A DNA stretch of 64,000 bases, from contig JAUYOL010000036.1 of NCBI GenBank assembly GCA_030695905.1, positions 118,814-182,813 on the forward strand. Direction: 5' to 3'. Below the pieces are notes generated by a model. It searched no databases and was not told where the DNA came from. It saw nothing but the letters and a program-made list of their open reading frames with translations. Positions 1 through 64,000 of this stretch are shown here, in pieces. The number at the start of each line of letters is the position of its first letter. Within the stretch, counting starts at the first letter, position 1. A program made the translations under genes and the position numbers. This stretch comes from Candidatus Omnitrophota bacterium. Lineage in GTDB: Bacteria; Omnitrophota; Gorgyraeia; 2-01-FULL-45-10.

Positions 1-667
1 GACTGGTATATATAGCCGCGTACGGCGCCCGGCGTCCGATATCGTCAAAACAATGCCAATTATGCGCTCGGTAAAGATTCATCGGGAGCAGATCCCATGC
101 CGCGATCGGAATTCCGATATCCAGATTCTTGATCAGCGCCGCTCTCTGATTATTTCTTATCATGCCCCCTTCAGAAAACCATAGGCCGGGAACATGCGAA
201 AACTCATTTTTTCCTGATTTCAAAACACCTATCAGGATCTCTAATGTAAGCGGCCCTTCCCCTTCAATAGCAAAATCTACGCTCTCTTCTTCCAATGTCT
301 GCTTGGGCAATGCGGTCGGATGAAGCCCGCCGATAGCCACTTTGACAGCTGTATTGTCCTTTATCGCCTTACAGATCCTGCCGGCAATGGTCATGTTCTG
401 AGTAGACGCTGATGGCTGCGAGCCATATACAATTACGGCAGCTAATAAAGGATTTAGCTTTTTGACTCTTGCCGCCGTTTCTTCTGGGGTAATATTCTCG
501 GCATTAGCATCAATTATCGCGATCGTGTGCTTATTGTTCCTTAAATAGGCGGCTATTACAGCGGCCCAAAACGGAGGCTCGATCGCGGAATAGTCCTGCC
601 CCATATCCTGATAGACCTGTTTCCTATCGCCTGGATTTATCAATACAATATCAATTCTATCAGGCAT
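1..667 (-). CDS. Cobalamin-binding radical SAM protein, N-terminal part only (start ATG at 667, continues off the left edge). The translation MPDRIDIVLINPGD...AVKVAIGGLHPTALP has a B12-binding-domain look
   Basis: Hand translation of the minus strand from 667 gives an open frame to position 1. It contains GG-H-T-x-P, the same motif shared by the other six B12-rSAM genes here. The start overlaps the transketolase-C stop as TAATG. The radical SAM core itself is off-window. Confidence 0.55.
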   Translation of the reverse strand, partial: MPDRIDIVLINPGDRKQVYQDMGQDYSAIEPPFWAAVIAAYLRNNKHTIAIIDANAENITPEETAARVKKLNPLLAAVIVYGSQPSASTQNMTIAGRICKAIKDNTAVKVAIGGLHPTALPKQTLEEESVDFAIEGEGPLTLEILIGVLKSGKNEFSHVPGLWFSEGGMIRNNQRAALIKNLDIGIPIAAWDLLPMNLYRAHNWHCFDDIGRRAPYAAIYTS

Positions 668-1623
668 TAGTGTTGTCCCAATAACGCTTTAACATCTTTT
701 GCGATACTATTTTCACCCAGCTTGTTCAGTTCGTGCAGGTAATCCCTGCTTCCGATATCAAAAACATAGGAATCGTTAAAGCCGATATTTTTTAACCTTA
801 TCGGAGAATTGTTTTTATTTAATAAGTGCAAAATAATGCTGTCAAGCCCGGCCTTGTTAATAAACCCTTCCTCAAGAGTTAAAACATATCTATAATTTTT
901 TAACGCATTAAAGAGCGGGCCTTCATTTAAAGGTTTCAGCATGAAAATATCTATGAGCCCGATATCTATGTCTTCCTGGCTCAATTTTTCTACTACCCGC
1001 AATGCTTTATGGGTCATATATCCCGTAGAAACAAGACATAAATCTGTACTCTTTTTTAATTCACTGAATCCGCTTTCGATATCGGCCTTTTTATAAATTG
1101 AAGGAAGCGGTTTACCGTCAAACCTGAGATACTTTGGCTTTTTCACCTTTATCGAATAGTCCACAAATCTTTCAGTTAGCACCCAGTCGCTTGGAGAGAA
1201 TATTTCTATGTTCGGCAATACCCTCATTATAGAAATATCCTCGAGGCAATGGTGCGTCGGGCCCGAAACATCGTAACTTAAGCCAGCCCCCACCCCGACC
1301 AGATTAACATTTACATCTTTAAGCTGCGACTGCATCGACAGATTGATCCTGATCTGTTCATAGGGGCGCATTGTCAGAAATGGCGCTATGGCATAGGCAT
1401 ATACCGTAAATCCCTCCAACGCTAATCCTGTTGAAATATTGACAAGGTCCTGCTCGGCAATGCCTACATTGATAAACCTGTCTTTAAAAGAGCTTCTTAA
1501 CCTGTCGAGTTTTGGAGAGCCAAAATCAGCACAAACAAAAAATATGCTTTTGTCACTCTCCATGCGGCTAGAGAGTTCTTCAATAAAAACGTCCCGCATT
1601 GTCTTTAAATTTTCTTTTTTCAT
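667..1623 (-). CDS. Transketolase, C-terminal (pyrimidine-binding) subunit of a split transketolase
   Basis: 318 aa. The GIAEQDLV motif and overall pattern are typical of the transketolase C-terminal section. It overlaps the N-terminal subunit gene by 4 nt. Confidence 0.8.
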   Translation of the reverse strand: MKKENLKTMRDVFIEELSSRMESDKSIFFVCADFGSPKLDRLRSSFKDRFINVGIAEQDLVNISTGLALEGFTVYAYAIAPFLTMRPYEQIRINLSMQSQLKDVNVNLVGVGAGLSYDVSGPTHHCLEDISIMRVLPNIEIFSPSDWVLTERFVDYSIKVKKPKYLRFDGKPLPSIYKKADIESGFSELKKSTDLCLVSTGYMTHKALRVVEKLSQEDIDIGLIDIFMLKPLNEGPLFNALKNYRYVLTLEEGFINKAGLDSIILHLLNKNNSPIRLKNIGFNDSYVFDIGSRDYLHELNKLGENSIAKDVKALLGQH

Positions 1624-2453
1624 TCTAACCCGGATACCAACGTATCGACCTCATCGGCCGAAAGATTTTTAATATGGCTTAAAGAATCTGTTTCAAGCCT
1701 GGCCACGCCCTTACCCTTAACGGTATTAGCGATCAAAACCTTTGGCCTCTTATTATCCGTTTCTTTAAAATGCCGCAGAGCATTACAAAGCTCCCCCACA
1801 TCATGGCCATTTACTTTTTTAGCGATCCAGCCAAAGGCCTCGAACTTCTTTTCCAGCGGAGCCAGGTCAATTATATTTTTGCAATAATCCAGCATGCATA
1901 CTTTATTATCATCCACGATAAGTACCAGATTATCCAGCTCATGCTCCGATGCGAACATTACCGCTTCCCATATCGAACCTTCATAGAGTTCTCCATCTCC
2001 GACCAACACAAATACTTTCTCTTTACGTTTCTTTCTTTTCAGGCCCAGGGCCATGCCGCAGCCGACGCCTAAACCATGGCCAAGAGAACCATTGACAGTT
2101 TCAAATCCGGGTATGATAGCATCCGGTATGCCTCCTAAAATGCATCCGGCCTTACAGACATTATTCAGGTATTCCTTAGGAAAAAATCCTAAATCCGCCA
2201 GTACGGGATAAAAAGAAACCGCGCCATGGCCCTTGCTGATTATAAACCTGTCCCTGCCTTCCCACGAAACATTCTTGGGATCAAAACTTATTACCTTGCC
2301 ATAATACAGCACGGCGAATATTTCAACTGCTGAAAGCGAAGAAGCAAGCCTTGTCTCCTGGGCAACCTTATGGATCTTCAGCGTTTCTTTCCTGACCCAT
2401 TCGGATTTTTCTTTCAAAAATTTCAATTTACTATATTTATCTGACATTGCCAT
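1620..2453 (-). CDS. Transketolase, N-terminal (thiamine-diphosphate-binding) subunit
   Basis: 277 aa. ThDP-binding motifs GHGAVSFYP, GSLGHGLGVGCGMALG and VGDGELYEGSIWEA. Confidence 0.8.
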   Translation of the reverse strand: MAMSDKYSKLKFLKEKSEWVRKETLKIHKVAQETRLASSLSAVEIFAVLYYGKVISFDPKNVSWEGRDRFIISKGHGAVSFYPVLADLGFFPKEYLNNVCKAGCILGGIPDAIIPGFETVNGSLGHGLGVGCGMALGLKRKKRKEKVFVLVGDGELYEGSIWEAVMFASEHELDNLVLIVDDNKVCMLDYCKNIIDLAPLEKKFEAFGWIAKKVNGHDVGELCNALRHFKETDNKRPKVLIANTVKGKGVARLETDSLSHIKNLSADEVDTLVSGLE

Positions 2454-3390
2454 ATATGTTGTTGGAGATAATTTTATACCCCTTTATCAGCTCTCTTATT
2501 CCCATATCGAGGGAATGGACCGGTTTAAAACCTGCCTTTTCTATTTTCTCATTTGATACGATATAATCCCGCTTATCGGGATCCTGCCCGACCTGAGATT
2601 CCATATATACAAAATCAGGGATATGTTCTTTTATCTTTGCGCATAGTTCTAACTTTGAAAGATTCGCATCGGACAGGCCGACATTATAAGCCTCATTCTT
2701 CATTTCAGAAAACTTTTCCATTGCATGCATAAAAACGCGCGCCACATCGCGCACATGAATGTAGTTTCTCCTAAAATGGCCCTCAAATACAACTACAAAC
2801 CTGTCATTTACCGCTCTGTAGGTAAAATCATTTACCAGTAAGTCGATCCTCATCCTTGGCGATACGCCAAAAACAGTAGCGAGGCGAAAACTTATTGAAT
2901 TTCCCCTATCAAGGATTATCTTTTCAGCCTCCATCTTCACCCTGCCATACAGGGTAAGCGGGTTTAACGGGCTTTTTTCCGTACAATGTATATCCTTCTG
3001 GCCGATGCCGTAGCCGCTGTTCGTAGTAGGCATGATTATTCTTTGCTCTTTGGATGCAAGTTTTGCGATCAGGCCTATGGCATCTCTGTTTATTGTCACG
3101 GCTCCGGTCTTATCCCTGTTACATAACGGTGCGCCGACCAAAGCTGCAAGCGGAATAATATAATCGGCATCTTTAAGAAGCGGTTTTAACACGGCTTCGT
3201 CTCTGGCGTCCCCTCTTACGACATCAAAGCCTTTATAAGTACAGCAATCCAGTAGCGAGTTTTGGCCATACATGAAATTATCCAACACCGTAATCTTATA
3301 TCCTGACTTTAGCAGCTCTGGAATCAAAGCTGATCCGATGTAACCTGCGCCGCCTGTAACTAAAATACTTTTTCCGGTTTCCTTCACCAT
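2437..3390 (-). CDS. NAD-dependent epimerase/dehydratase (extended SDR)
   Basis: N-terminal Rossmann motif ILVTGGAGYIGS; YGRVK (YxxxK) catalytic motif. Confidence 0.7.
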   Translation of the reverse strand: MVKETGKSILVTGGAGYIGSALIPELLKSGYKITVLDNFMYGQNSLLDCCTYKGFDVVRGDARDEAVLKPLLKDADYIIPLAALVGAPLCNRDKTGAVTINRDAIGLIAKLASKEQRIIMPTTNSGYGIGQKDIHCTEKSPLNPLTLYGRVKMEAEKIILDRGNSISFRLATVFGVSPRMRIDLLVNDFTYRAVNDRFVVVFEGHFRRNYIHVRDVARVFMHAMEKFSEMKNEAYNVGLSDANLSKLELCAKIKEHIPDFVYMESQVGQDPDKRDYIVSNEKIEKAGFKPVHSLDMGIRELIKGYKIISNNIYGNVR

Positions 3391-3420: not shown

Positions 3421-4209
3421 TTAAGTATATCTGACAAGAACATCTTCTCTTCTTTTAACCAGCGCCTTTGGGTTTTCTATCAGATCCGTGGCGCTCCAGG
3501 CATCAACGCAATATTGTTTCATATAATCGTAGTTAAAATATCCATAACCGCCATCTCCCCACCTGTCGCCCCATGAATTCTTGAATTTAAACAGCTTCTT
3601 TGGATCATCATATCCGATAACGCATATGGCATGACCACCCTGATATATCTCTTTTTTCTTTGGCATAGGAATCAGCCCTGTTTTGGCGGCCTTTTTTGTA
3701 AACCACGATTCATAGACGTCGACCCCTGCCAAAAATGGGCCATTGATCACAAGGCTTCTTTTCATATCCGGCATGGTCTTTAAGCGGGCATAGGCCATTA
3801 TCTTATATTTTACCGCTGCCTTACCAGAGCCTGTTTTCGGCTTATCTGACTGATGCGGCCGGTACGGCCAGTAATTTTCAGGCGGCGTGCCGTAATTCAA
3901 TAATATTTTCATGGCCACCCTCGGATACGTACCATCCTCTTCAGGGCTGCCATCATATTTTTTGCATAGCTGGTAAAGATATCTAGGTGAAAGCGAAATT
4001 AAATTCTTGTATTCTTTTGTATCCTGATATTCTTTCATGCCGACCACACTCGCGAACGCCACGCAAGTGCCTTCGTCCCCTTGACTTCTAACAGGTGTCA
4101 TGTTTTCAGTATAATCGATGTTGGGCGGCAGTGGAATCGGCGGCAGGACCAAGCCCATCGGAATATCACGCAAATCGCGGGGATCTTTTAAACAGCCTAA
4201 CCTACGCAC
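3421..4209 (-). CDS. Papain-like (C1A) cysteine peptidase domain protein with no signal peptide or prodomain
   Basis: QGDEGTCVAFAS matches the papain Cys motif QGSCGSCWAF. GGHAICVIGYDD supplies the catalytic His and NSWGDRWGDGGYGYF the Asn-Ser-Trp. The N-terminal 40 aa are Pro-rich with no hydrophobic leader. Confidence 0.65.
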   Translation of the reverse strand: MRRLGCLKDPRDLRDIPMGLVLPPIPLPPNIDYTENMTPVRSQGDEGTCVAFASVVGMKEYQDTKEYKNLISLSPRYLYQLCKKYDGSPEEDGTYPRVAMKILLNYGTPPENYWPYRPHQSDKPKTGSGKAAVKYKIMAYARLKTMPDMKRSLVINGPFLAGVDVYESWFTKKAAKTGLIPMPKKKEIYQGGHAICVIGYDDPKKLFKFKNSWGDRWGDGGYGYFNYDYMKQYCVDAWSATDLIENPKALVKRREDVLVRYT

Positions 4210-5503
4210 CTTCCTCCTTAAGGGCTGTCTTTTGAACCGCTATGATCAAACCCATCATAAACCACATTAAATTCGCTAATTGTAAGGCGTAAAAATTAAC
4301 ATCGAAAAAGCTATGCACTAAAAATGCGAATAATCCCGTTAATAACCCTGCCAGGATGCAGCCGTAAAATGTATCTTTAATTTTTCTCACATTTGTAATA
4401 GAGGCCTTGAACAAACTTACTATGACAAAAATGAAAGAAAGTAATCCAACGATCCCTGTCTCAGCCGCCATTTGAAGATAGGAATTGTGGGGATAGATCC
4501 CAGCCTCTAATAGGCCGCTTTTATAACGAGGCGCTACGATAGAATATGCGTTTAACCCGCAACCAAAAACGGGAAAGTCCCTGATGATCAATAGTGCCTC
4601 CCGCCATAGATTGGTCCTGACAATGTCCATATTTTGCATTATCAGGACGAGACTCTGCTTTATAGCAAATACAGGGTCCTGTCCTTCGATAGTCATATGT
4701 ATAAAAAACGGGATAGCGATAAGCGATGCCAGCAATATAAAAACTATGCTGATTAAAAATATTCTATTTTTTTTAACCACCATGTTAACTATCATGAAAA
4801 ATATCGCTGCAAAAGCAAGCCCCGTCCAGGCACCCCTTGACCGCGTCAGTACAAGACACGCCATTAATGCGCTCGATAGGCATATTATCAATACACCGGC
4901 TAAAAACCACAATATAACAGGTATGGCTTTCTTCGGTTTATTGATTATCAGCGCATAAAAGATGCCGTACAATAACGGCAACATTACTATGAGCCACGCA
5001 CCAAAACCGTTGGCACTGGAAAAGGAGGCTGTAATCCTGCCGGCTTGCGGATATTTTCTTAAAAAATCCCCCACTGTTGTCACATATTGAAAAATGCCGT
5101 CTGCGCCTATAAGCAGCATAGACAAGACCATGGTAACCATCACTGCATTCAGCTTTTTTCTATCGTTTATAATCTCTGCTACTATAAAATACAACACCAC
5201 TCCCTTGAGTAGCTTAGAGAAAAATCCTCTTAGGCTTAAAGAAATAGAGGTGCTAAGAAGCACCGATAGAAATGCTGCTATTATAAATAAATATACCGGG
5301 AGATTTAATTTTGTATCAACCGGTTTAAATATTCGTATCAACGAACTCCGCGAATCATAAGATAGCGCCCTATTTAAAATCCATAATGCAAAAGCAACCG
5401 CAATGCATATCTCTACCGCTGATTTTGAAAATGGCAGAGTAAATATCATTACCGATAAAGCTAACACTGTCAGCCAGCTAACCCATTCTCTAACTATCGC
5501 CAT
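4202..5503 (-). CDS. O-antigen ligase/polymerase family membrane protein (Wzy_C-type)
   Basis: About 10 predicted TM helices. YPHNSYLQMAAETGIVGLL matches the Wzy_C (O-antigen ligase) signature H-N-x-Y-L...E-x-G. Confidence 0.6.
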   Translation of the reverse strand: MAIVREWVSWLTVLALSVMIFTLPFSKSAVEICIAVAFALWILNRALSYDSRSSLIRIFKPVDTKLNLPVYLFIIAAFLSVLLSTSISLSLRGFFSKLLKGVVLYFIVAEIINDRKKLNAVMVTMVLSMLLIGADGIFQYVTTVGDFLRKYPQAGRITASFSSANGFGAWLIVMLPLLYGIFYALIINKPKKAIPVILWFLAGVLIICLSSALMACLVLTRSRGAWTGLAFAAIFFMIVNMVVKKNRIFLISIVFILLASLIAIPFFIHMTIEGQDPVFAIKQSLVLIMQNMDIVRTNLWREALLIIRDFPVFGCGLNAYSIVAPRYKSGLLEAGIYPHNSYLQMAAETGIVGLLSFIFVIVSLFKASITNVRKIKDTFYGCILAGLLTGLFAFLVHSFFDVNFYALQLANLMWFMMGLIIAVQKTALKEEGA

Positions 5504-7349
5504 TATATTTTCCGTTCGGCTTGTAAGTAGGCACCATCTCTTTTATTTTGGCTAAGACCTTTTCTTCGTCCATTAAATTAGCCAGTCTTTCCAGTGTCTT
5601 CATGTCTTTGCGCAATTGAAGAGCGTCGAAATTATTTGGTTGCGCAATATAAATCTTATCGTGTTTTGTAGCCTTGTTATGCTCAATGTCCAAAAGCATT
5701 TCCTCCATCATCTTTTCTCCGGGCCTTAAACCGATAAATTTAATCTCTATATCCTTGTCTGGCTCCAGCCCGGACAACGTTATAAGATTTCTTGCAAGAT
5801 CCGCTATTTTTATCTGTTCGCCCATGTCAAGGATGAGCACTTCGCCGCCCTTACCGATAGCGCCTGCCTGCATAACAAGCTGAGCGGCTTCACTTGCCGT
5901 CATAAAAAATCTTTTAACATCGGGATGCGTTACTGTAAGCGGTTTCCCGGCCGCTATCTGCTGCTTGAATATAGGTACCACGCTGCCGCTGGAGCCGATT
6001 ACATTACCGAACCTTACAGCCATGAACTTTGTCCTCGCGGTCTTGGCCTTTGACTGTATCATCATCTCGGCTATCCGTTTTGAGGCCCCCATGGTGCTTG
6101 TAGGATTTACCGCCTTATCCGTAGATATCATTACAAACTTCTCCACTCCGTAATGCTCTGATGCATAAACAAGATTTCTTGTTCCAATGATATTGTTTTT
6201 TATGGCCGCGATGGGATTCCCTTCCATGAGCGGCACATGTTTATGCGCAGCGGAATGAAAAACTATATTAGGCCTATATTTAGAAAATACGCTCTTCAAT
6301 AGCCCTATGTCTTTTATGTCACCGATAATAGTTTTAAATGACATATGGGGATAATTTGCCTTAAGCTCCATCTCTAAAAAATATAAATCGTTCTCGTTTA
6401 AATCATATAATATTAATCGGCCGGGATTAAACTTTGCTATTTGCCGCGACAATTCTGACCCTATAGTGCCGGCAGCGCCTGTTATTAAAACAACTTTGTT
6501 CTTTAATAGAAAGCTTATATCCTGTGTATTTATATTGACAGTTTCCCTGCCCAAGAGATCTTCAGGTCTTACATCTCTTATATGTTTTATCGTTACCTCT
6601 CCGGTTAATATCTTATGAATTTCCGGCATGGTCTTGATCTTCACTTCTGTCTTTTCGCATCTTGAGACGATATCTCTTATTGTTCTACCGCTAGCGGAAG
6701 GCATGGAAATGATCACTTCTGATATATTGTGGTTTTTGATGGTATCTTTTATATCATCGATCTTACCTAAGACTTTTACGCCGTGTATGCGAGAATTTAG
6801 CTTACTTGGGTTGTCGTCGATAAAACCTACCGGCTGATATATTCTTTTTTTTGCATTAATCATCTCACGAACAACCATTTCACCTGATGCGCCGGCTCCT
6901 ATTATAAGAACTCTTTTGAGATTATGGGATTTAAGTTGCCTGAATTTAATCAAAACTCTAGGAGAAAATCTTGAGCTACCAATGAAAAAGAGGCATATCA
7001 GATAATCGATCAATAGTACTGACCGGCTCATCTCTATGCGTTGCGTAAAAAATGCTACCGCAATAAGCGATAAGCTGCCCATCGTCACAGATTTTAATAT
7101 ATTTATTGCTTCGCTTATGCTCGCATAGCGAAATGACCATTGATACATCCCAAAGATAGCAAGTAGAATAATCCTGAGAATGGTTGCCCACATCATAAAA
7201 TACAGGCATGGAGATACAATAATGGCGGTGAGTCGCCAGTCAAATCTGATCGCAAAGGCTAAGAACATCGACAAATTCACTAACACCAGATCGACGGCCA
7301 GCATTATTGGTATTCGTAATCTATCGAATATATCTTCTATATTATGCAT
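5490..7349 (-). CDS. Membrane-anchored NDP-sugar 4,6-dehydratase/epimerase (CapD / PglF / WbpM family)
   Basis: 619 aa. Four N-terminal TM helices followed by two Rossmann domains (LIIGAGASG; VLITGAAGTIGSEL). Length and architecture are typical of PglF/CapD. Confidence 0.8.
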   Translation of the reverse strand: MHNIEDIFDRLRIPIMLAVDLVLVNLSMFLAFAIRFDWRLTAIIVSPCLYFMMWATILRIILLAIFGMYQWSFRYASISEAINILKSVTMGSLSLIAVAFFTQRIEMSRSVLLIDYLICLFFIGSSRFSPRVLIKFRQLKSHNLKRVLIIGAGASGEMVVREMINAKKRIYQPVGFIDDNPSKLNSRIHGVKVLGKIDDIKDTIKNHNISEVIISMPSASGRTIRDIVSRCEKTEVKIKTMPEIHKILTGEVTIKHIRDVRPEDLLGRETVNINTQDISFLLKNKVVLITGAAGTIGSELSRQIAKFNPGRLILYDLNENDLYFLEMELKANYPHMSFKTIIGDIKDIGLLKSVFSKYRPNIVFHSAAHKHVPLMEGNPIAAIKNNIIGTRNLVYASEHYGVEKFVMISTDKAVNPTSTMGASKRIAEMMIQSKAKTARTKFMAVRFGNVIGSSGSVVPIFKQQIAAGKPLTVTHPDVKRFFMTASEAAQLVMQAGAIGKGGEVLILDMGEQIKIADLARNLITLSGLEPDKDIEIKFIGLRPGEKMMEEMLLDIEHNKATKHDKIYIAQPNNFDALQLRKDMKTLERLANLMDEEKVLAKIKEMVPTYKPNGKYNGDS

Positions 7350-7403
7350 TTTGGAGATTATATCCTTTATCAGCTAAATAGTCAATTATAGCACTACAAT
7401 ATA

Positions 7404-7964
7404 TCAGTGGTGCACGCCTTCTCCCTGAATTGATTTGATAATAGTCATAACTAAAATCTTGCCATCCAATAGAAGAGATTTGTTTTTCAGATAATACTCA
7501 TCAAATTCGACCTTAACCGGTATGGGGAGGCTATCTCTTCCGTTAACCTGCGCCCATCCCGTAACCCCCGGGGAAAGCTTATGTATATTTTTTTTAGTCC
7601 TTAACTCTATCAAATCGTACTGGTTAAATAATGCCGGGCGGGGGCCTACAAAAGTCATGTCCCCAGATATTATATTGAACAACTGCGGAAGCTCGTCTAG
7701 ACTAAATTTACGCAAAAATTCACCGAACGGCGTAATATAGTTATCCGGATTTTGAAAGAGATGAGTTGCGACAGTCGGTGCGCCAAGACGCATAGTGCGA
7801 AACTTTGGCATCTTAAATATTTTATTATCAATACCTACCCTATCCGACCAATATAAAGCAGGCCCTTTAGAGGTAAGCTTGATCACCAAACCGATAATGA
7901 GCATTGGGATGCTTAAAATAACTAATAAAAAACCCGCCATTATAAAATCAAAAACGCGTTTCAT
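7404..7964 (-). CDS. Undecaprenyl-phosphate sugar phosphotransferase (small PglC/WbaP-C-terminal-type initiating transferase)
   Basis: 186 aa with a single N-terminal TM. Conserved DELPQLFN and FVGPRP motifs of the bacterial sugar transferase family. Confidence 0.85.
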   Translation of the reverse strand: MKRVFDFIMAGFLLVILSIPMLIIGLVIKLTSKGPALYWSDRVGIDNKIFKMPKFRTMRLGAPTVATHLFQNPDNYITPFGEFLRKFSLDELPQLFNIISGDMTFVGPRPALFNQYDLIELRTKKNIHKLSPGVTGWAQVNGRDSLPIPVKVEFDEYYLKNKSLLLDGKILVMTIIKSIQGEGVHH

Positions 7965-10340: not shown

Positions 10341-10344
10341 AAAA

Positions 10345-13822: not shown

Positions 13823-13826
13823 GACT

Positions 13827-14264: not shown

Positions 14265-14268
14265 ATCT

Positions 14269-16568: not shown

Positions 16569-16580
16569 CTCACGATCTTT

Positions 16581-27549: not shown

Positions 27550-27554
27550 AATCG

Positions 27555-37976: not shown

Positions 37977-37977
37977 T

Positions 37978-51106: not shown

Positions 51107-54101
<2,995 letters not shown>

Positions 54102-54115
54102 CGGTCAATGCCTCC

Positions 54116-56077: not shown

Positions 56078-57198
56078 ATATTGCCTCTGATCTTCCCGTA
56101 AACCGACTCATATTTTTTTACCATAGCGGAAAGGCTGAATCTTTCGCAAACCCGCGATCTCGCATTGCTTCCCAGTTCTCCCGCTTTATCCGGATTACTC
56201 AAGATATAGTCTATCGCGTCCGCTATTGCCTCGGGATCCTTTTCGGGAATAAGTAACCCGTTAAGCCTATTTTCAATTATTTCCGGGACCCCCCCTACAT
56301 TCGTGGCTATAACTGCCTTGCCGGAAAACATCGCTTCGATAATACTAAGCCCAAAACCTTCTTCGAGTGAGGGGTGAACCACGATATCCATTATCGATAA
56401 CAGGTCCGGGATGTCCTTCCTGTACCCTGTAAATATTACCTTCTCTCTCAGGTCAAGCAGGTCTCTTAAGGCAACCAGTCTCTCCTCTAATATGCCGTCG
56501 CCTACAAGCAGAAATTTGACATCCTGCCTTTTCCGGCAGACGATATCGGCAGCACGGATCAAATACTCATGACCTTTTCTCGGATGAAATATACCGACGG
56601 TACCGATTATCTTGACATCATCATCTATCTTCAGTTCGCGTCTGACCTTGGCCCCTGCGTCCATTAAAGGATCAAATCGTTTCAGATCAATACCGTTATG
56701 GATGACCGATATTTTTTTATCGGCGATTCCGTCTAACCGGACTAAGATATCTTTCACGCCGTAAGAGATAGCTATGATATGTTTTGCCCTCTTTAAAACC
56801 CATCTATCCAGGAACCGTTGAAAACTGTTACCGTAAAGATAGAGCATGTTGGAGTAGTGCTTTGTTATCAAAACCGCTGTCTTCCCAGAAAAGATGCCGG
56901 CGAGATAACCTACTATACCTGCATGAAATAGATGGGTATGCAAAATATCAATTTTATTTCGTTTTATGATCTGCACCAGTTTTATAATAGCCGCGGGCAA
57001 ACAGATTATATTGTCGTATCCCAGCGAATAACACTTTTGGCTCAGTTTCTCGATTTCAGCGTGTAAATCACCTCTTTTTTTAAGCGTGCAAAATAACAAC
57101 TCAAATCTTGATCTATCATATTCCCCGGCTATGCCTATAAGTAATTTCTCAGCACCGGCTATTTTAGAGTCTGTCGTAAGATGCAATATTCTTGTCAT
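56065..57198 (-). CDS. GT4-family glycosyltransferase
   Basis: EGFGLSIIEAMFSGKAVIATNVGG (Glycos_transf_1 signature). Confidence 0.8.
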   Translation of the reverse strand: MTRILHLTTDSKIAGAEKLLIGIAGEYDRSRFELLFCTLKKRGDLHAEIEKLSQKCYSLGYDNIICLPAAIIKLVQIIKRNKIDILHTHLFHAGIVGYLAGIFSGKTAVLITKHYSNMLYLYGNSFQRFLDRWVLKRAKHIIAISYGVKDILVRLDGIADKKISVIHNGIDLKRFDPLMDAGAKVRRELKIDDDVKIIGTVGIFHPRKGHEYLIRAADIVCRKRQDVKFLLVGDGILEERLVALRDLLDLREKVIFTGYRKDIPDLLSIMDIVVHPSLEEGFGLSIIEAMFSGKAVIATNVGGVPEIIENRLNGLLIPEKDPEAIADAIDYILSNPDKAGELGSNARSRVCERFSLSAMVKKYESVYGKIRGNICAA

Positions 57199-57211: not shown

Positions 57212-58045
57212 TCATACTTTCTTAGCGACGATGATTATTCCATTCCCGCTCTTATTTACCTTTGCGACGTCTAAAATCATTAGTATCGTAACAAGCGGTT
57301 GAACAAATAAAAAATAGAGTGGGAATAAGGCCAAAAATAGTAACGGGCGAAACTGGCACATGCAGAACAATTCATAACCTAAGGCGCCAAGTTTCCCAAA
57401 AGATATCCGCGTGTCGATAATCTTGAGTTTATTCTTTTCAATGATCCCGGTTATCTCGCTTAAGGCGTACCCTTCCCGGACATGCTCCAGGCTATGCGGT
57501 TTAAAAAAATCGGCATTTCTCAAGAACGGTAGCACTCTTTTTTGGGGACTTGCCGGCACACCAACGATTAAAATACCATCTCTCTTAAGCGCTTTAAAGA
57601 ATGTCGCGACCACGGCATTATCTTTTTCAATATGCTCCAAAACATCCGTGCATAGTATAAGATCGAATTGATTATCCTGCTGCAGGTCAACAAGATCTGA
57701 ATGCCTGGTTTCAATATTAAGATTCTCCCTGTTTATAAACGGCCTAAAATTTTCTATCCTGGACTTATCGATATCAACGGCGCAAATCTTAGCCCGCGGG
57801 AACGCCCTTGACAAATAGTAACTATACTGCCCAAAACCTACCCCGGCATCAAGTATATTCAATGTTTCTTTTTCCCTGCCCTTGAGCGCAGCTTTGAGCG
57901 CGCACTTTACGTACCATTCCGTCAATATATTCAGAGAAAGGTAAAGATAATACCCTTTTCTTATCAACGAATTTTCGGATAACTTTTTCTTAATAAACTT
58001 TTTCATAAGCTCGCGCCAACACCTTGGAATACTCGTTCTGTTCAT
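57212..58045 (-). CDS. Class I SAM-dependent methyltransferase
   Basis: ILDAGVGFGQYSYYL motif I; LILCTDVLEHI. An alternative start at 58006 is possible. Confidence 0.65.
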   Translation of the reverse strand: MNRTSIPRCWRELMKKFIKKKLSENSLIRKGYYLYLSLNILTEWYVKCALKAALKGREKETLNILDAGVGFGQYSYYLSRAFPRAKICAVDIDKSRIENFRPFINRENLNIETRHSDLVDLQQDNQFDLILCTDVLEHIEKDNAVVATFFKALKRDGILIVGVPASPQKRVLPFLRNADFFKPHSLEHVREGYALSEITGIIEKNKLKIIDTRISFGKLGALGYELFCMCQFRPLLFLALFPLYFLFVQPLVTILMILDVAKVNKSGNGIIIVAKKV

Positions 58046-59240
58046 GAAGCGCCGACTTCTCCGGATCCATCAAAGTTAACACCTTTTCGCGGGCATTTTT
58101 ACCCATCTTCTTCCCGTCAGCAGGGCTTGCTAATATGCTGTCTATCCTGTCGGCCAACGCCATCCAGTCCCTGTTAGGCACCAGGTAACCGGTCTCTCCA
58201 TCAACAACAACCTCTCTCTGCCAGTCATAGTCATATGCGATGATCGGCACTCCGGCAAGCGCAGACTCAACCAATGCCCTACCCATGTGCGGTGAAATAA
58301 TAGCTGTTGCTTTAGGTAAAACGGCGGCGATCCACTCTTGAGCGCGGTTGCCGGCAAAGATCACCGCGTCTTCAACCTTCAGCGAGGTTGCCAGGGCCTC
58401 GAGTTCCTTTCTTATCGGTCCGTCTCCGATTATAAGGCCCTTGACGCGGCGCCCCCGCTTGATAAGTTCAGCGACAACGCGGATCATGTCTTCAATGAGT
58501 TTCATTGGAACAAGACGCGATACGGTCGCCAGGACCTTTTCATCCTTTATTCCAAGCCCGGCAAGCTGCGTGTCGCCGTCGGAACGCACGGCCGGTTCCT
58601 GCCAGTGATCCTTGTGTATAAGATTACCGTACCTAAAAACCGTCGCGACATCGGGGCGGCCGCCATTCTCCAGGGCATAACGCATATTGTCCTCATTCGC
58701 TCCCGCTATTAAGTCACAGCGCGGGAACACAAATCTTTCTACGATCTTTTCAATCCAGCGAAACTTGAACAGACGCGGCATCACAGGCTTTCCCGTCAAT
58801 CGAAAAATTTCGTCATATCTGAAACAAGCCCTGACAACCAAAGGCACTCTCAGTCTTCTGGCTAAAAATAATCCCATTAATCCCAGATAATACGGATCGC
58901 CTATGCGCACAACTTTTACCTTTAGCTCTCTGGCCATCTTAAGCAATATCCGCGTCAGTTTAATTTGCGCTAAAAACAGATTTAACGGAGGCGCAAACCG
59001 CCAGGTACGACTAACGCCTACTTTCCCCTCTACGAACAGATGCGAGTCATCAAGCCGAGTGATGACGGGATCACCGAACCTGTTATCGCCAGATTCAAAA
59101 ATTCCGGCCAGCGGATGCACGGAAATGACCTTATCAAAATATCCTGCAAGCCTTCTACTGTCCAGCGCCTGCTCCATACGGTTTTCCCTGAACATCTTTA
59201 GCGTATAAGACATATCCAGGACAAGGATCGCTTTTGTCAA
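57990..59240 (-). CDS. GT4-family glycosyltransferase
   Basis: C-terminal HMGRALVESALAGVPIIAYDYDWQREVV and GETGYLV (Glycos_transf_1). Confidence 0.7.
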   Translation of the reverse strand: MTKAILVLDMSYTLKMFRENRMEQALDSRRLAGYFDKVISVHPLAGIFESGDNRFGDPVITRLDDSHLFVEGKVGVSRTWRFAPPLNLFLAQIKLTRILLKMARELKVKVVRIGDPYYLGLMGLFLARRLRVPLVVRACFRYDEIFRLTGKPVMPRLFKFRWIEKIVERFVFPRCDLIAGANEDNMRYALENGGRPDVATVFRYGNLIHKDHWQEPAVRSDGDTQLAGLGIKDEKVLATVSRLVPMKLIEDMIRVVAELIKRGRRVKGLIIGDGPIRKELEALATSLKVEDAVIFAGNRAQEWIAAVLPKATAIISPHMGRALVESALAGVPIIAYDYDWQREVVVDGETGYLVPNRDWMALADRIDSILASPADGKKMGKNAREKVLTLMDPEKSALHEQNEYSKVLARAYEKVY

Positions 59241-59243: not shown

Positions 59244-60116
59244 TTAGTACCTGCCTATTAATTTCAAATGAAACTTAAGCGGAATTTTCAAAACTATAAA
59301 ACGGTATAAAAGATATAAGGCACTCCTTAACCTTTCAGGGAGCATAGCCGCTACCTTCTTTAATGAATCACTCCTTTTTGATTGCGCGTCTTTTGCGGCC
59401 TGAGCGCCTGGCCACCTTTTTAAATATTGGCCTTGCTGGATAGAGGCATTAAAAGTAGACGTATCCGTTTTTTTAACTACAAAAAACACATAATATATAT
59501 TCTTGCCAAGGCCTCCATAAGAGAGCCTGTCCAGGCATCCCGGCACATATTTATAGGCATCCATTAAATAATTATTCCCGTATCTGGAATATTTCACGAA
59601 TAACGAATCTTTTATTTCCCAGTTATTTGCCGAATAATAATCCCAGAATAATGTCGGTGAAAACATATAAAATCCGTGTTCTACGCAATTCGTTGAAGGC
59701 AAAAAGTGAATTATCCTGCCCCCTGCTTTAAGCATTTTATGGTAATTCTCGAGTACCTTCGGCAGGTTAAATACGTGTTCCGAAGTGCCTCCGTCAAATA
59801 TCAAATCATATTTACCGTGAAGATTGACTGGCACGTCCTTATTTAAGTCATGTATTATTGTGCATTTCTCAAAATCGCTATAATCAAGGCTGTCTATGTT
59901 GTCAAAGCCGGCCGATAAAAATAAATCCACGTCGGTAACGCGAGCGCCCGTGACGGGTTTTTTTAATTCAAAGCCCATATCTTGAGCCCATCTCTTGAAT
60001 ACAAGCGGCGTGACAGGACAGATATCCTGCCTTCCTATGGTCAGCGCATGCCCGGAAAATTTTTCCCTACTACCCTCTCTCATCAAAAGCTTGATTGAGC
60101 CGCGATCAGTACCCAT
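59244..60116 (-). CDS. Methyltransferase-like protein (class I fold, divergent)
   Basis: YDLIFDGGTSEHVFN...MLKAGGRIIHFLP resembles the Methyltransf_11/23 C-terminal half. No clear GxGxG motif. Confidence 0.45.
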   Translation of the reverse strand: MGTDRGSIKLLMREGSREKFSGHALTIGRQDICPVTPLVFKRWAQDMGFELKKPVTGARVTDVDLFLSAGFDNIDSLDYSDFEKCTIIHDLNKDVPVNLHGKYDLIFDGGTSEHVFNLPKVLENYHKMLKAGGRIIHFLPSTNCVEHGFYMFSPTLFWDYYSANNWEIKDSLFVKYSRYGNNYLMDAYKYVPGCLDRLSYGGLGKNIYYVFFVVKKTDTSTFNASIQQGQYLKRWPGAQAAKDAQSKRSDSLKKVAAMLPERLRSALYLLYRFIVLKIPLKFHLKLIGRY

Positions 60117-60118
60117 TT

Positions 60119-60841
60119 CTATCCCCTATTTTTCAGGCAAATGAACCATTTACCTATTTGCGCGCCGCCTGTCCAGGCAGAATCCAGAATGTATACAACG
60201 TCATGATATTGCTTAAATTTGCTCGCCCACCAGTCCAGGTTGTTATTGAAATAGGACTGACCGGCGCATTTTACCCACCCCTCATTCTTGCCGCTTTCTG
60301 AAACCGGGATCTGATGAAAAGCTGCGTTTTTCACGATTCTGCTCGATTCTTTTATAGCCCTTGAAATGCCTTCTTCGGTAAAATGTTCGATAGACCCGAT
60401 AGAATACGCATAGTCAAAATAATTGTCTTCATAGCCGGTGTCTGTGACATCGCACACCTTAAGCCGCTCTGCCAGTATCCCCTTAGCCACGGCCCTTTCT
60501 ATCAATAAATCGGAAATATCGCATCCGTAGATCACAACTCCGGGAAACTTCTTCGAAAGTATATCGATCGTCTTACCCGTGCCGCAGGCAATGTCTAATA
60601 TCCGTCCGCGACAATTAGCCAGCAGGAATTGAATCTCGTTCCATACCGTTCCTTCGCCCCAATTCTCCAGTTTGTCCGCAAAGGCCTTATTCCAATATAT
60701 GCCTAAGTCCTGATTCGACGGGTTACGCGGCCTTTTTATGCGCCTTGTGATCTTTGAAATAACCCTGTTATTTACAAATTTCAAAGAATCCCACACTACT
60801 GGCGGGCATAGCCGCTTAAAAACTACTTTATAACTTACCAT
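60119..60841 (-). CDS. Class I SAM-dependent methyltransferase
   Basis: ILDIACGTGKTIDIL motif I; YAYSIGSIEHF. Confidence 0.7.
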   Translation of the reverse strand: MVSYKVVFKRLCPPVVWDSLKFVNNRVISKITRRIKRPRNPSNQDLGIYWNKAFADKLENWGEGTVWNEIQFLLANCRGRILDIACGTGKTIDILSKKFPGVVIYGCDISDLLIERAVAKGILAERLKVCDVTDTGYEDNYFDYAYSIGSIEHFTEEGISRAIKESSRIVKNAAFHQIPVSESGKNEGWVKCAGQSYFNNNLDWWASKFKQYHDVVYILDSAWTGGAQIGKWFICLKNRG

Positions 60842-60856
60842 CTCATCTCTTTCGAT

Positions 60857-61702
60857 TTAAAACTTTTTTGGAACTGAGGACGCTTTCATACGGTTCGAAA
60901 TAGCGTCTTTAAAGCTTGGGGTCACGCACCCTTCCCTTTTGTCCGCCAGCGCCTTACAGCCGGATACGCAATATCTGCAAATGTCTTTTCTTAAATTTGG
61001 CCATGCATCCATAAACCTTTCGGGAAAATCATATTTTGCGTATTCCGCGAGCCCAAACAGCATCGCTATCGGTCCGCAGGTGCCTCCGGGCCAGTAACCA
61101 TATGCATTCAATAATACGCCGCATTCCCGCGGAAGGCTGCACACATCCCATTTAAGCCCGAGGTCCACCGGAGCCGAAAGCACATATATAAATGACTCAT
61201 GCGCTTCTTTAGGCGACGCGATAATCTCTATCTTTTTTTCGTTAAAAGCCCTGTCTATATTAGCGTCAAGCCTGCATTCTTTTAAAGCGCTGCTTGAGCC
61301 GATAATACCGTTTGTATATATCTCTATGCGCGCAAGATTCCCGGGAACCATCAATTCGTAGAAAAGCAGCGATATGAAATCATGCAGCCGCGGGTGTAGG
61401 AAAGGCTCTCCGCCAAGTATCTGTATGCGTTTCAAACGAATATTTTTCTGCCTGACCTGGTTTATGAATTTTTCAATTTGCTCAATTTTCATATCCGCGT
61501 CTTTGAGGTGCGGCAGCCCAAGATTACAGAAACGGTTGCACTTAGAACATAATTTGTTGCAACGATACGTGATTTCAAGCTGTATATATTTGACGCGCCA
61601 ATTCTTATCTAAATTTTGCGCGACAGATACTGATGCGCGGTAAATTTTATGCTTTACCCACGGTACTACCTGCCAGATATTATTTTTATTCTTTAAGGAC
61701 AT
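60857..61702 (-). CDS. Radical SAM enzyme (Cys-rich C-terminus); start uncertain between 61702 and 61912
   Basis: EITYRCNKLCSKCNR carries CxxxCxxC. C-terminal CGPIA...CRYCVSGC...GCVTP. The track ORF starts at 61912 and would overlap the upstream GT2 by 208 nt. The internal Met at 61702 removes the overlap. Confidence 0.6.
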   Translation of the reverse strand: MSLKNKNNIWQVVPWVKHKIYRASVSVAQNLDKNWRVKYIQLEITYRCNKLCSKCNRFCNLGLPHLKDADMKIEQIEKFINQVRQKNIRLKRIQILGGEPFLHPRLHDFISLLFYELMVPGNLARIEIYTNGIIGSSSALKECRLDANIDRAFNEKKIEIIASPKEAHESFIYVLSAPVDLGLKWDVCSLPRECGVLLNAYGYWPGGTCGPIAMLFGLAEYAKYDFPERFMDAWPNLRKDICRYCVSGCKALADKREGCVTPSFKDAISNRMKASSVPKKF

Positions 61703-61704
61703 GC

Positions 61705-62667
61705 CTATCTCCACCATCCGAGCATCGGTTTTATGATCCTTTCGCGGAAAAGGCCGTCGTTCGCCACCCTTGTATTCGGATTGTGCAGCCACCGCCAATA
61801 TATAGCCTCGCCTACACGCTCTTTCGATCCGGCCGGGCATAGTGACCCGGCGGATTTGATTAAAAGTTTTAAAAAAACCTGCCTTGCCTGGTCCTGGATC
61901 AAAACGCCCCATAGTTGAAACTTCCTTAAGAATGATATTCTCGCACCCGCTATCCGGCTAAAATGGTCGCAGAATAATATAAAGAACGGCAGGTACCACC
62001 ATGGCTTATTCTGCCCCCCGAGCGCGGCGCTATAATCCTGTTCGACAGTATTCCATTTGGGGCGCCCGAAGTAAGTAAAAAGTACTTCCGGTACCTGGAT
62101 AAAATCGCCGTAAATAGACAGCTCCTGGATAAACGCCAGCTCCGTCGACATGCTTTTACGCAACATGTGCGTTTGGCGCATCGCCGATGAACGATAAAGC
62201 CCGTAAAGCGCCACTGCCGGAAGCCGCTTCAGGGTTTCGCGGTACCTGCCCGCTAACCCTGAGACGTTCGCGAAGCTGTCAAGAGTGGCGACACGCAACA
62301 GCTCTTCCCTGCCCTCAATATAAGACGCCGTATGCACCTGGCACAGCACCGCACCCGAGGATTGTTCCATCTTCCTGACGCATGCGTTCACAAAAGAACG
62401 CTCCCGTTTATCGTCATGCGCGGCCCACATGAAATATTTTCCTTTAGAGAGCTCAAAAACACGGTTAAAGTTATACAGTATCCCCATATTTTTTTCGGAC
62501 CTGTTGTATTTAATCCTGGGGTCTTTATGCGCATATTCCCGGCAGATCTCAGGAGTCGCGTCCGTAGACCCGTTATCAGAAATGATGATCTCAAGATTAG
62601 CGTAATCCTGTTCCAATAGAGAATCCAGTGCGCGCGATATATGCCTCTCGCCATTAAACACCGGCAC
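61705..62667 (-). CDS. GT2-family glycosyltransferase (annotated start is GTG; conserved N-terminal strand lies upstream of it)
   Basis: (E-P-L-V-S-I-G)-V-P-V-F-N-G-E...ISDNGSTD. The GT2 motif begins in codons upstream of the first canonical start codon. Confidence 0.65.
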   Translation of the reverse strand: MPVFNGERHISRALDSLLEQDYANLEIIISDNGSTDATPEICREYAHKDPRIKYNRSEKNMGILYNFNRVFELSKGKYFMWAAHDDKRERSFVNACVRKMEQSSGAVLCQVHTASYIEGREELLRVATLDSFANVSGLAGRYRETLKRLPAVALYGLYRSSAMRQTHMLRKSMSTELAFIQELSIYGDFIQVPEVLFTYFGRPKWNTVEQDYSAALGGQNKPWWYLPFFILFCDHFSRIAGARISFLRKFQLWGVLIQDQARQVFLKLLIKSAGSLCPAGSKERVGEAIYWRWLHNPNTRVANDGLFRERIIKPMLGWWR

Positions 62668-62678
62668 GCCTATACTGA

Positions 62679-64000
62679 CTAAAGGTTCTGAATTTTTGAT
62701 ATACGCCTCATAATCGCGTTACGGAACAACCTGTTAATCCCGAGTTTCGAGAATAGCACCGCCTTCTGCCCGCCCATCCACGAGATCTCAAGATTAAAAA
62801 CTTCATAACATATGACCCGGTATCTGTAGATCTTCATCAGGGCCTTCATGAGCCGCGGATACATCTTCTGTTTTACAGTAGCCGGATAAATATCTTTAAG
62901 CAACCTGTCAAAAACCTTGCGTGGAAGCTTAACAAAAACAAGCATCACGATCAAGATGTTGGCGAGCGTAGGGGCCAGACAGTGAAAGCTGGAGTTAATA
63001 TCAGGGATCGATATGCCTCGCTCTTTCAGATCGGCAGCAAGCTGCGTATTCGGTATCACCCTTAAGGAAAAGAGATACAACGTAAAAGGCCTTGGCAGGC
63101 CATAGACCAATTCCAAGGTACGTATTATATCATCCCGTGTCTCTATCGGATTATCCAGTATGATGTCGTAGTTTGGTGGTACCATATACGAAGAATATCT
63201 GCCTATAATTTTTGTCGCATCCTGAATGAGGCCCGGCCTGTTAGGCCGTTGATAAAATTTCAGGATATCATCGCTGCCGCTTTGTATGCCCATACGCATC
63301 CGCACAAGCCCCGCCCGTACAAGAATGCTTATCTTCTCTTCGTTCACATACGCGGGTATTATGCCGCCGACCGCGAAAGGCATATTTACTTCTTTTTTCC
63401 ACAGCTCCGCAAATTCCTTCAATATGTTAAGAGGTATCGACATAAACCCGTCATCTACAAAAGTCACAGCCGAAAGATACGGATATTTACTTAATACATT
63501 CTTTATCTCATCGATAATATAGCGCGCTGAAGGGTATCTTATCCTGCCGTATGTAGGGTCATTTTTGATAAATTTCGAGTTGCTGCAATAAGTGCATTTG
63601 TTCGGGCAACCGATAGACCATATAGTTGTATAGAATAGCCCTTTTGCTTTAATGAAATCCTCGCCCCGGAATGGGATAAAACCCCTGCCGGAAACAAATA
63701 ACAACTCGTCGTCCATAAATAAATGGAACGGGAATCCGGACATCTCCTGGGGCGTGTTAAGAGGAAGAAACCCGTTCTTTATTACCACCTCTCCATCCCT
63801 AAACCAAAAATTTCCGATCGAACGGTATGAGCTGCCCTGCTCAATCGTTGATAGCAGCCGCAGAAACACTTTCTCGCCTTCGCCGACACAAACCGCATCG
63901 GCGTGCTTGATCACGTCTTCAGGGCACAGTATCGCATGGACGCCGCCCCAAATGATAAAAAGGCTTGGATTCAAGGTCTTTGCCGCAGCAATAACATTCT
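62679..64000 (-). CDS. Cobalamin-binding (class B) radical SAM enzyme, N-terminus off the right window edge
   Basis: IGCPNKCTYCSNS carries CxxxCxxC. IIWGGVHAILCPE is the end of the B12 domain. The frame stays open from the track start (TTG at 63974) to position 64000, and the upstream residues (NVIAAAKTLNPSLF) still look like B12 domain. Confidence 0.7.
   Translation of the reverse strand, partial: NVIAAAKTLNPSLFIIWGGVHAILCPEDVIKHADAVCVGEGEKVFLRLLSTIEQGSSYRSIGNFWFRDGEVVIKNGFLPLNTPQEMSGFPFHLFMDDELLFVSGRGFIPFRGEDFIKAKGLFYTTIWSIGCPNKCTYCSNSKFIKNDPTYGRIRYPSARYIIDEIKNVLSKYPYLSAVTFVDDGFMSIPLNILKEFAELWKKEVNMPFAVGGIIPAYVNEEKISILVRAGLVRMRMGIQSGSDDILKFYQRPNRPGLIQDATKIIGRYSSYMVPPNYDIILDNPIETRDDIIRTLELVYGLPRPFTLYLFSLRVIPNTQLAADLKERGISIPDINSSFHCLAPTLANILIVMLVFVKLPRKVFDRLLKDIYPATVKQKMYPRLMKALMKIYRYRVICYEVFNLEISWMGGQKAVLFSKLGINRLFRNAIMRRISKIQNL

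Follow-up and report, generated by a model that had tools for sequence, protein, structure and literature searches.

A co-directional gene cluster of at least 89.7 kb predicted to direct surface-glycan synthesis in Candidatus Omnitrophota

We analyzed a 64,000-nt stretch of DNA (hereafter, the window) from a Candidatus Omnitrophota bacterium (assembly GCA_030695905.1, contig JAUYOL010000036.1, positions 118,814 to 182,813 of the forward strand), which an earlier note had described as a strictly unidirectional gene block. We conclude, with a probability of roughly 0.7, that the window forms the central part of a gene cluster for a lipid-linked Wzx/Wzy-type surface glycan, that this cluster spans at least 89.7 kb with ∼80 co-directional genes, and that it works as a chain of operons rather than as one operon. 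The feature is real and larger than first claimed; it is an exceptionally large example of a known locus type and not a new organization.

The one-stranded layout of the window was confirmed. Minus-strand open reading frames (ORFs) of at least 150 aa tile 98.3% of the window, compared with 5.0% for plus-strand ORFs of the same size, the longest of which is 242 aa. The gene set was built from the longest ORFs, adjusted by public gene calls wherever these were present, and comprises 54 complete minus-strand genes plus two that are cut by the window ends, for a total of 56 that matches the ∼56 credible coding sequences reported earlier (one listed ORF, 62679–63974, belongs to a 518-aa gene whose start, at position 64235, falls outside the window). 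Credible plus-strand genes, which the earlier note had named as the observation that would speak against it, were not found: at E ≤ 0.01, Pfam recognized none of the ten largest plus-strand ORFs, all of which are nested in Pfam-supported minus-strand genes. By simple arithmetic, the chance of 56 co-oriented genes is ∼3e-17 at a 50:50 orientation and ∼5e-6 at an 80% strand bias. No tRNA or Rfam family was detected in the window, not even a cobalamin riboswitch, although B12 enzymes are numerous. Direct and inverted repeats were limited to short matches of the kind expected by chance, and ends of mobile elements were not seen.

The genes are tightly packed. The 54 junctions consist of 28 overlaps, 18 gaps of 0 to 20 nt, and eight gaps of more than 20 nt, so that 46 are either overlapping or separated by no more than 20 nt. 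The description of most junctions as ATGA overlaps was overstated, as exact 4-nt ATGA overlaps account for 11 of the 54 (∼20%). Some of the long overlaps (47–91 nt) reflect over-extended starts; for example, position 17330 is a better start for the gene at 16581–17417 and creates another ATGA junction. The largest spacer measures 59 nt (15394–15452), as had been noted; adopting the publicly annotated start of the flippase gene would make it 81 nt.

The block extends well beyond the window. Exact-protein matches assigned the window to two longer sequences, a Logan contig of 171,534 bp (SRR13727529) and an NCBI contig of 252,627 bp, whose protein names identify the source as a Candidatus Omnitrophota metagenome-assembled genome (MAG). 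Flanking sequences retrieved from the end genes, plus one further upstream step, were joined to give 89,729 nt, with overlaps that match the window exactly. All of the ∼80 genes in this sequence lie on a single strand, and the block continues past both ends of the window with neither boundary reached, so the unidirectional block of 64 kb is in fact one of at least 89,729 nt.

On the basis of Pfam and NCBIfam assignments, nearly every gene belongs to surface-glycan synthesis, which bears out the functional relatedness that had been proposed. Several hallmarks of a Wzx/Wzy-type cluster are present in the window. These include an initiating polyprenyl-phosphate sugar-phosphate transferase (7404–7964, PF02397) and a Wzx flippase of the MOP family (22320–23852, with a second copy outside the window). 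A possible Wzy (4202–5503) has 12 transmembrane (TM)-like segments and a PF04932 domain, which also occurs in WaaL ligases and O-oligosaccharyltransferases; three further polytopic proteins lacking family matches could be polymerase candidates too. Nucleotide-sugar genes occur in the same cluster as ∼12 glycosyltransferases (GT2, GT4, and GT-C types). They include a nonulosonic-acid module of NeuB, NeuC, and a CMP-transferase (26851–29766) that adjoins a WbuX amidotransferase, two DegT aminotransferases, and several epimerases and dehydratases; the window also holds two AsnB-type amidotransferases and a split transketolase. In all, the block encodes a number of nucleotide-sugar pathways that are independent of one another, along with two Wzx flippases and no fewer than six polytopic membrane proteins. 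A LIC12162-family transferase, the mark of a Leptospira-type O-antigen locus, scores well above its curated cutoff (402 versus 225 bits) and has no sequence relative among solved structures. We therefore describe the block as a probable Wzx/Wzy-type surface-glycan cluster, O-antigen-like or capsule-like, with the product predicted from the gene families. The features of the window are as follows (SAM, S-adenosylmethionine; ThDP, thiamine diphosphate).

1–667, minus: B12-binding radical SAM enzyme, 5′ part of a 489-aa gene (PF02310, E 1.6e-18)
667–1623, minus: transketolase C-terminal section of a split enzyme (PF02779, PF02780)
1620–2453, minus: transketolase N-terminal ThDP-binding section (PF00456, E 6e-32)
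2437–3390, minus: NAD-dependent sugar epimerase/dehydratase (PF01370, E 1.7e-31)
3421–4209, minus: papain-family C1 peptidase (PF00112, E 2e-22)
4202–5503, minus: Wzy_C-domain membrane protein of the O-antigen polymerase/ligase family (PF04932, E 1.2e-20)
5490–7349, minus: PglF/CapD-like membrane NDP-sugar 4,6-dehydratase (PF02719, E 6e-117)
7350–7403, minus: spacer of 54 nt with candidate internal promoter
7357–7385 (7347–7385 as listed), minus: candidate internal promoter TTGACT-17-TATAAT, 11/12 consensus match
7404–7964, minus: initiating phosphoglycosyl transferase, Bac_transf, PglC-like (PF02397, E 1.4e-57, full-length match)
7948–9402, minus: B12-binding radical SAM enzyme, absent from L005 (PF04055 and PF02310)
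9399–10340, minus: NAD-dependent sugar epimerase (PF01370, E 3e-43)
10345–11463, minus: GT4 glycosyltransferase (PF13692/PF00534)
11460–12878, minus: polytopic membrane protein, 472 aa, 8 TM-like segments, absent from L005 (no Pfam/NCBIfam match)
12866–13906, minus: GT2 glycosyltransferase (PF00535, E 3e-27)
13827–14315, minus: dTDP-sugar 3,5-epimerase-like cupin (PF00908)
14269–15393, minus: NDP-sugar dehydratase/epimerase (PF16363, E 1.7e-31)
15394–15452, minus: largest spacer, 59 nt, GC 0.27, second candidate promoter
15453–16568, minus: DegT-family sugar aminotransferase (PF01041, E 1e-97)
16581–17417, minus: SAM methyltransferase with a weak match, probably starting at 17330 (PF13489, E 4e-5)
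17327–18826, minus: B12-binding radical SAM enzyme, absent from L005 (PF04055 and PF02310; nearest NCBIfam NF038361, 300 bits, below the 575 cutoff)
18823–19560, minus: soluble protein, 245 aa (no Pfam/NCBIfam match)
19566–20582, minus: SAM methyltransferase (PF13649/PF08241)
20569–22329, minus: LIC12162-family O-antigen-associated transferase (TIGR04331; PF27859 in public annotation)
22320–23852, minus: Wzx-type flippase, 10 TM-like segments, public start 23789 (PF01943, PF13440, PF01554)
23871–24629, minus: short-chain dehydrogenase (PF13561, E 6.5e-32)
24601–25719, minus: radical SAM/SPASM enzyme (PF13186, PF04055)
25724–26845, minus: WbuX-type N-acetyl sugar amidotransferase (TIGR03573, 309 bits, cutoff 203)
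26851–27549, minus: CMP-nonulosonic acid cytidylyltransferase (PF02348, E 1.6e-22)
27555–28733, minus: UDP-GlcNAc 2-epimerase, NeuC-like (PF02350, E 1e-78)
28717–29766, minus: NeuB-family nonulosonic acid synthase (PF03102, E 5e-72)
29763–31250, minus: B12-binding radical SAM enzyme (Pfam; closest solved structure AprD4, 6fd2, E 2e-24)
31257–33143, minus: Trm112-like and SAM methyltransferase fusion, public start 33116 (PF08241, PF03966)
33113–35002, minus: AsnB-type glutamine amidotransferase (PF00733, E 1.5e-70)
35017–36897, minus: polytopic membrane protein, 626 aa, 13 TM-like segments (no Pfam/NCBIfam match)
36861–38030, minus: radical SAM/SPASM enzyme, public start 37985 (PF04055, PF13186)
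37978–39234, minus: DegT-family aminotransferase-like protein, public start 39222 (PF01041, E 1.8e-47)
39253–40248, minus: hexapeptide-repeat acyltransferase (PF00132)
40253–41146, minus: GT2 glycosyltransferase (PF00535, E 1.4e-31)
41173–42276, minus: radical SAM enzyme (PF04055, E 6e-21)
42301–43224, minus: SAM methyltransferase (PF13489, E 4e-23)
43221–44726, minus: B12-binding radical SAM enzyme (Pfam)
44723–46882, minus: polytopic membrane protein, 719 aa, 10 TM-like segments (no Pfam/NCBIfam match)
46879–48180, minus: PMT_2/GT-C-type membrane glycosyltransferase (PF13231)
48155–48841, minus: SAM methyltransferase (Pfam)
48848–49576, minus: SAM methyltransferase (PF08241, E 9e-25)
49624–51087, minus: B12-binding radical SAM enzyme (Pfam)
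51107–52432, minus: GT2 glycosyltransferase (Pfam)
52429–53391, minus: NAD-dependent sugar epimerase (PF01370, E 9e-54)
53388–54101, minus: transglutaminase-core-like protein, one N-terminal TM-like segment (PF01841, E 2e-5)
54116–56077, minus: AsnB-type glutamine amidotransferase, local GC 0.50 (PF00733, E 3e-115)
56065–57198, minus: GT4 glycosyltransferase (Pfam)
57212–58045, minus: SAM methyltransferase (Pfam)
57990–59240, minus: GT4 glycosyltransferase (Pfam)
59244–60116, minus: 290-aa protein, weak methyltransferase match (Pfam)
60119–60841, minus: SAM methyltransferase (Pfam)
60857–61702, minus: radical SAM-like enzyme, 281 aa by public call (Pfam)
61705–62661, minus: GT2 glycosyltransferase (Pfam)
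62679–64000, minus: B12-binding radical SAM enzyme, 3′ part of the 518-aa gene with start 64235 (Pfam)

Two features of the flanks complete the list.

L002 4039–5307: second Wzx flippase, upstream of the window
L003 10957–12426: B12-binding radical SAM enzyme, the full 489-aa gene at the low end of the window

A few genes stand out from this inventory. The papain-family peptidase (3421–4209) and the transglutaminase-core-like protein (53388–54101) have no obvious role in sugar synthesis and are unexpected in a glycan cluster. The halves of the split transketolase (667–2453) are joined by an ATGA overlap and lie beside an epimerase gene and a B12-binding radical SAM gene; the enzyme may give a sugar a two-carbon branch or lengthen its chain. 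About 5.6 kb past the low end of the window (L003 16225–17819), a carbamoyltransferase is split into fragments of 79 and 365 aa with 258 nt between the public gene calls. This gap is the only sizeable non-coding gap across the 89.7 kb, and the split gene is probably broken, a pseudogene.

To place the block among related loci, we compared the genomic surroundings of LIC12162 homologues. Many homologues were found, and among the matches listed, all of those with a source name came from Omnitrophota MAGs. Three contexts were looked up directly, and 16 loci from named genomes were scored with an ORF-tiling script that reproduces the all-minus pattern of the window. All 16 loci are co-directional over the whole ∼21.7 kb retrieved, and they span five named phyla; the exceptions to co-directionality are one true cluster edge (CP070780.1) and two isolated doubtful ORFs. 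The labels of the loci are Omnitrophota (10), uncultured Planctomycetales (two, one being the syntenic L007), Candidatus Scalindua (two), and Nitrospirota, Hydrogenedentota, Leptospira, and unclassified bacterium (one each). The Omnitrophota loci are as tight as the window, and those of Scalindua have wider spacers. The view of the earlier note that such an arrangement is rare is not supported: all of the homologous loci retrieved share the layout and operons of 70 to 80 kb are known (PMC6391919); what is unusual is the size.

Comparison with a syntenic relative, L005, was informative about how the array may grow. Window positions 5490–23789 are collinear with L005 positions 8551–21761 at 27 to 72% identity. 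Extra in the window are two B12-binding radical SAM genes (7948–9402 and 17327–18826) and the gene for the 472-aa membrane protein (11460–12878), all in the same orientation and with tight junctions. Around a fixed backbone, the two loci differ by the gain or loss of units the size of a gene, in every case without a change of orientation. These three extra same-orientation genes led us to a model of insertion with read-through, in which acquired tailoring genes would be inserted in the prevailing orientation and expressed by read-through, with no promoters of their own, so that the array would stay one-stranded while growing. Farther upstream, a relative whose genes are 91% identical to those in the upstream portion of the block carries a gene for an HTH_24 regulator and more co-directional sugar genes. 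In L024/L025 (8446–8799), this 117-aa regulator is encoded inside the block after a 150-nt spacer with a promoter-like element, and it recalls the MarR gene with which the Leptospira rfb locus is reported to begin.

The search for transcription signals yielded 157 sigma-70-like sites in the window versus ∼149 expected from shuffled sequences, which is near chance. Global counts were near those of the shuffles; the informative signal was position in the rare large spacers combined with conservation. The two largest spacers (7350–7403 and 15394–15452) are AT-rich (GC 0.26–0.27). Each holds one copy of AATTGACT on the minus strand, where this sequence has no other copy in the 64 kb. In the first spacer, the TTGACT-17-TATAAT candidate ends 7 nt before the ATG of the PglF-like gene, a distance from which the mRNA is predicted to be leaderless or nearly so. 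When searched as TTGAYW-N16-18-TAYAAT-N6-9-ATG, this arrangement occurs once in the window versus 0.04 expected. Across 25 loci it was confined to annotated gene starts that follow one of the rare large spacers, and these were of three kinds: the window site, its orthologous counterpart in L005/L007, and the beginning of the HTH_24 regulator gene in L024/L025 (copies at L005 20739–20777 and L024 8410–8448). We then added to the comparison 13 further loci carrying a PglF-like gene. The element TTGAYTAT-N15-(G/T)ATATAAT is in register upstream of the orthologue in L026, L030, L027, and L034 (72–86% protein identity), where the flanks diverge; L005, L028, and L037 have their own −10/−35 pairs near the start codon. 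In several loci, the −10 hexamer of a TTGAYT-16/17-TATAAT element ends 7 to 9 nt before the ATG with no Shine-Dalgarno sequence, which suggests that leaderless mRNAs may occur in Omnitrophota. The second spacer holds AATTGACT with TAATAT/TATAAT followed by a GGGAG ribosome-binding site, and its orthologue in L005 reads TTGTTT-17-TATAAT and then a GGAG site. An internal promoter at 7357–7385 is thus well supported as a prediction by its conservation in at least five relatives, and a second one at 15394–15452 is plausible.

Terminator prediction gave the complementary result: in a consensus scan, none of the terminator-like matches fell in any spacer. Such hairpins were about twice as frequent on the coding strand as on the other (∼52 versus 25, an approximate count), an excess that probably reflects the T-richness of that strand and not function.

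Together, these observations suggest the following working model. Several nucleotide-sugar pathways (the nonulosonic-acid module, amino- and deoxy-sugar routes, and the amidotransferases) would feed the ∼12 glycosyltransferases, which would build the glycan on a polyprenyl-phosphate carrier, with Bac_transf as the priming enzyme. Nine B12-binding radical SAM enzymes, five other radical SAM enzymes, and ∼12 SAM methyltransferases would tailor the sugars, Wzx would flip the glycan unit over the membrane, and the Wzy_C and GT-C-type membrane proteins would complete the glycan. The lack of terminator-like sites in the spacers makes long read-through transcripts probable, with re-initiation at no fewer than two predicted internal sigma-70-type promoters (7357–7385 and in the 15394–15452 spacer), and the overlap of stop and start codons in about half of the gene pairs could provide local translational coupling.

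Several points weigh against this interpretation. The window contains 77 terminator-like sites versus ∼60 expected from shuffles, a slight excess, although all are intragenic and have short stems. The −35/−10 spacing of the second candidate promoter is 19 or 22 nt, which is non-optimal, and both promoters and read-through are predictions from sequence. The 5′ end of the block lies beyond the sequence covered, where a dominant upstream promoter or antiterminator may reside. With respect to the product, Pfam detected no Wzz/Wza/Wzc-type chain-length or export families among the genes of the 89.7 kb, although such genes are not universal inside Wzx/Wzy clusters. The Wzy_C protein is indistinguishable here from a WaaL ligase or an O-oligosaccharyltransferase, and the acceptor could accordingly be lipid A-core, a protein, or a free polymer.

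The earlier note envisaged a single transcription unit, selected for stoichiometric co-expression of one pathway, and such a unit might depend on a processive antiterminator loaded at the 5′ end. We consider this unlikely. The operon-like packing (junctions of ≤20 nt) and the terminator-free spacers agree with it, NusG-paralogue-dependent operons reach comparable sizes, and the position of the 5′ end leaves room for a master promoter upstream. The conserved promoter ahead of the PglF-like gene and the promoter-like spacer at 15394–15452 nevertheless point to internal initiation. The genes moreover serve many separate pathways, include two flippases, and encode enzymes rather than subunits of one complex, and they lend no support to the argument from stoichiometry. 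Nothing in the sequence covered supports control by ops and RfaH: the ops core GGCGGTAG has one copy, inside the Wzx gene, as expected by chance, the search of the window for ops/JUMPStart elements was otherwise empty, and no NusG paralogue was seen in 89.7 kb. On these predictions, the block should not be filed as a single operon. Co-orientation would not be specific to the cluster if genes across the genome were strongly biased to the leading strand, an explanation that we judge to be decidedly improbable. At four-fold degenerate sites, the coding strand has more G than C (+0.083) and more T than A (AT skew −0.087), a leading-strand signature, and the GC skew has one sign across all 64 kb; transcription-linked mutation, however, predicts the same skew and fits equally well, and replication orientation may contribute. 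Even an 80% bias gives only ∼2e-8 for 80 co-oriented genes (arithmetic), the homologous clusters from five named phyla are all co-directional, and the switch of orientation in CP070780.1 coincides exactly with the edge of the cluster.

The many B12-binding and SPASM radical SAM enzymes raise the alternative of a secondary-metabolite cluster, either aminoglycoside-like or for a ribosomally synthesized and post-translationally modified peptide (RiPP), or else of a mobile element. The closest solved structures to the B12 enzyme at 29763–31250 are AprD4, of apramycin biosynthesis, and TokK, OxsB, TsrM, and CysS, and the AsnB-type enzymes also resemble lasso-peptide cyclases. Yet when five B12-binding and four other radical SAM proteins were compared with NCBIfam, none of the nine reached a curated cutoff, RiPP-maturase cutoffs included, and no Pfam scan revealed a precursor peptide, polyketide synthase or nonribosomal peptide synthetase, integrase, transposase, or phage gene. 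The Wzx, Wzy_C, Bac_transf, PglF-like dehydratase, NeuB/NeuC/CMP-transferase, and LIC12162 proteins also speak against such a cluster, as do the ∼12 glycosyltransferases, and we regard it as very improbable. We favor the surface-glycan cluster with predicted internal promoters.

Base composition varies locally within the window. At 44001–48000, the plus strand differs from the remainder of the window in that its GC skew climbs to ∼0 and its AT skew to between +0.07 and +0.20, which is likely due to the T-rich hydrophobic codons of two polytopic membrane proteins (the 719-aa protein and PMT_2). At 54001–56000, over the AsnB-type amidotransferase gene (54116–56077), the GC content is 0.50 versus ∼0.43, and this segment may have been acquired separately.

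The tailoring enzymes counted above are drawn from the 89.7 kb with its ∼80 genes. B12-binding radical SAM paralogues just outside and inside the window are only 25 to 34% identical. Their density in LIC12162 loci is 0 to 1.4 per 10 kb, versus 1.1 in an 80-kb stretch here, and related loci in Omnitrophota, Planctomycetota-labeled MAGs (including Scalindua), and Hydrogenedentota have one to three per 21.7 kb. A literature search linking B12-binding radical SAM enzymes to O-antigen or capsule returned nothing relevant. It is conceivable, though on balance doubtful, that the block is the basis of an uncharacterized polysaccharide chemistry, in which sugars are C-methylated or radically modified repeatedly by divergent B12-binding radical SAM enzymes expressed from a read-through domain of more than 90 kb. 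If true, glycan loci rich in these enzymes would represent a trait that is widespread among uncultured anaerobes.

Among named systems, the block most resembles the rfb locus for lipopolysaccharide O-antigen in Leptospira. The two share the LIC12162-family transferase (TIGR04331), named after a Leptospira gene, as well as embedded nonulosonic-acid genes (PMC4243447) and Wzx/Wzy-type processing, and the locus of a Leptospira MAG (L022) is co-directional over 22 of 22 genes. The Leptospira rfb locus reportedly begins with a MarR-type regulator (PMC10958091). The block differs in belonging to another phylum, in a LIC12162 protein that is only 25% identical to that of L022, and in its nine B12-binding radical SAM genes, compared with none detected in 21.7 kb of L022. 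In L. interrogans, the rfb locus is ∼100 kb long and almost wholly on one strand; our literature search found no citable explicit statement of the strandedness and size of Leptospira rfb loci. Enterobacterial O-antigen and capsule operons under the control of RfaH and ops/JUMPStart elements, typically ∼5 to 30 kb, are likewise unidirectional, tightly packed polysaccharide clusters. In the block, by contrast, ops was not found beyond the one chance 8-mer inside a gene, a NusG paralogue was not seen in the 89.7 kb, and internal promoters are predicted. Distal genes of the enterobacterial clusters rely on suppressed termination over long distances (PMC6391919). The NusG-paralogue-dependent biosynthetic operons of Myxococcus xanthus and Bacillus amyloliquefaciens, at 70 to 80 kb, are comparable in length and single-strand layout (PMC6391919); they specify polyketides or antibiotics through few giant genes, unlike the ∼80 ordinary-sized glycan genes here. 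Within the phylum, the available text of a preprint describes Omnitrophota "polysaccharide variable cassettes," strain-variable surface-polysaccharide loci with an example of 25 kb (bioRxiv 10.64898/2026.06.07.730766), relative to which the block is at least 3.5 times longer.

Omnitrophota are described, in the available text of one study, as uncultured and mostly ultra-small, many of them with a presumed lifestyle of predation on other cells or of living on their surface (PMC10066038). Their surface glycans likely matter in host contact and phage defense. The contigs of two near-complete Omnitrophota assemblies measure 1.43 and 1.57 Mb. If 90 kb or more serve one surface structure, this would be a large share of a small genome and would point to strong investment in an elaborate, heavily methylated and amidated glycan. 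For annotation, very long single-strand runs in such MAGs should be read first as glycan clusters with internal promoters and not as single operons. The main residual interest lies in the dense, recurrent set of uncharacterized B12-binding radical SAM and methyltransferase genes and in the conserved promoter architecture in an uncultured phylum. The TTGAYT-17-TATAAT element, which in the window lies 7 nt from the start codon, offers a testable promoter model for a phylum without genetics.

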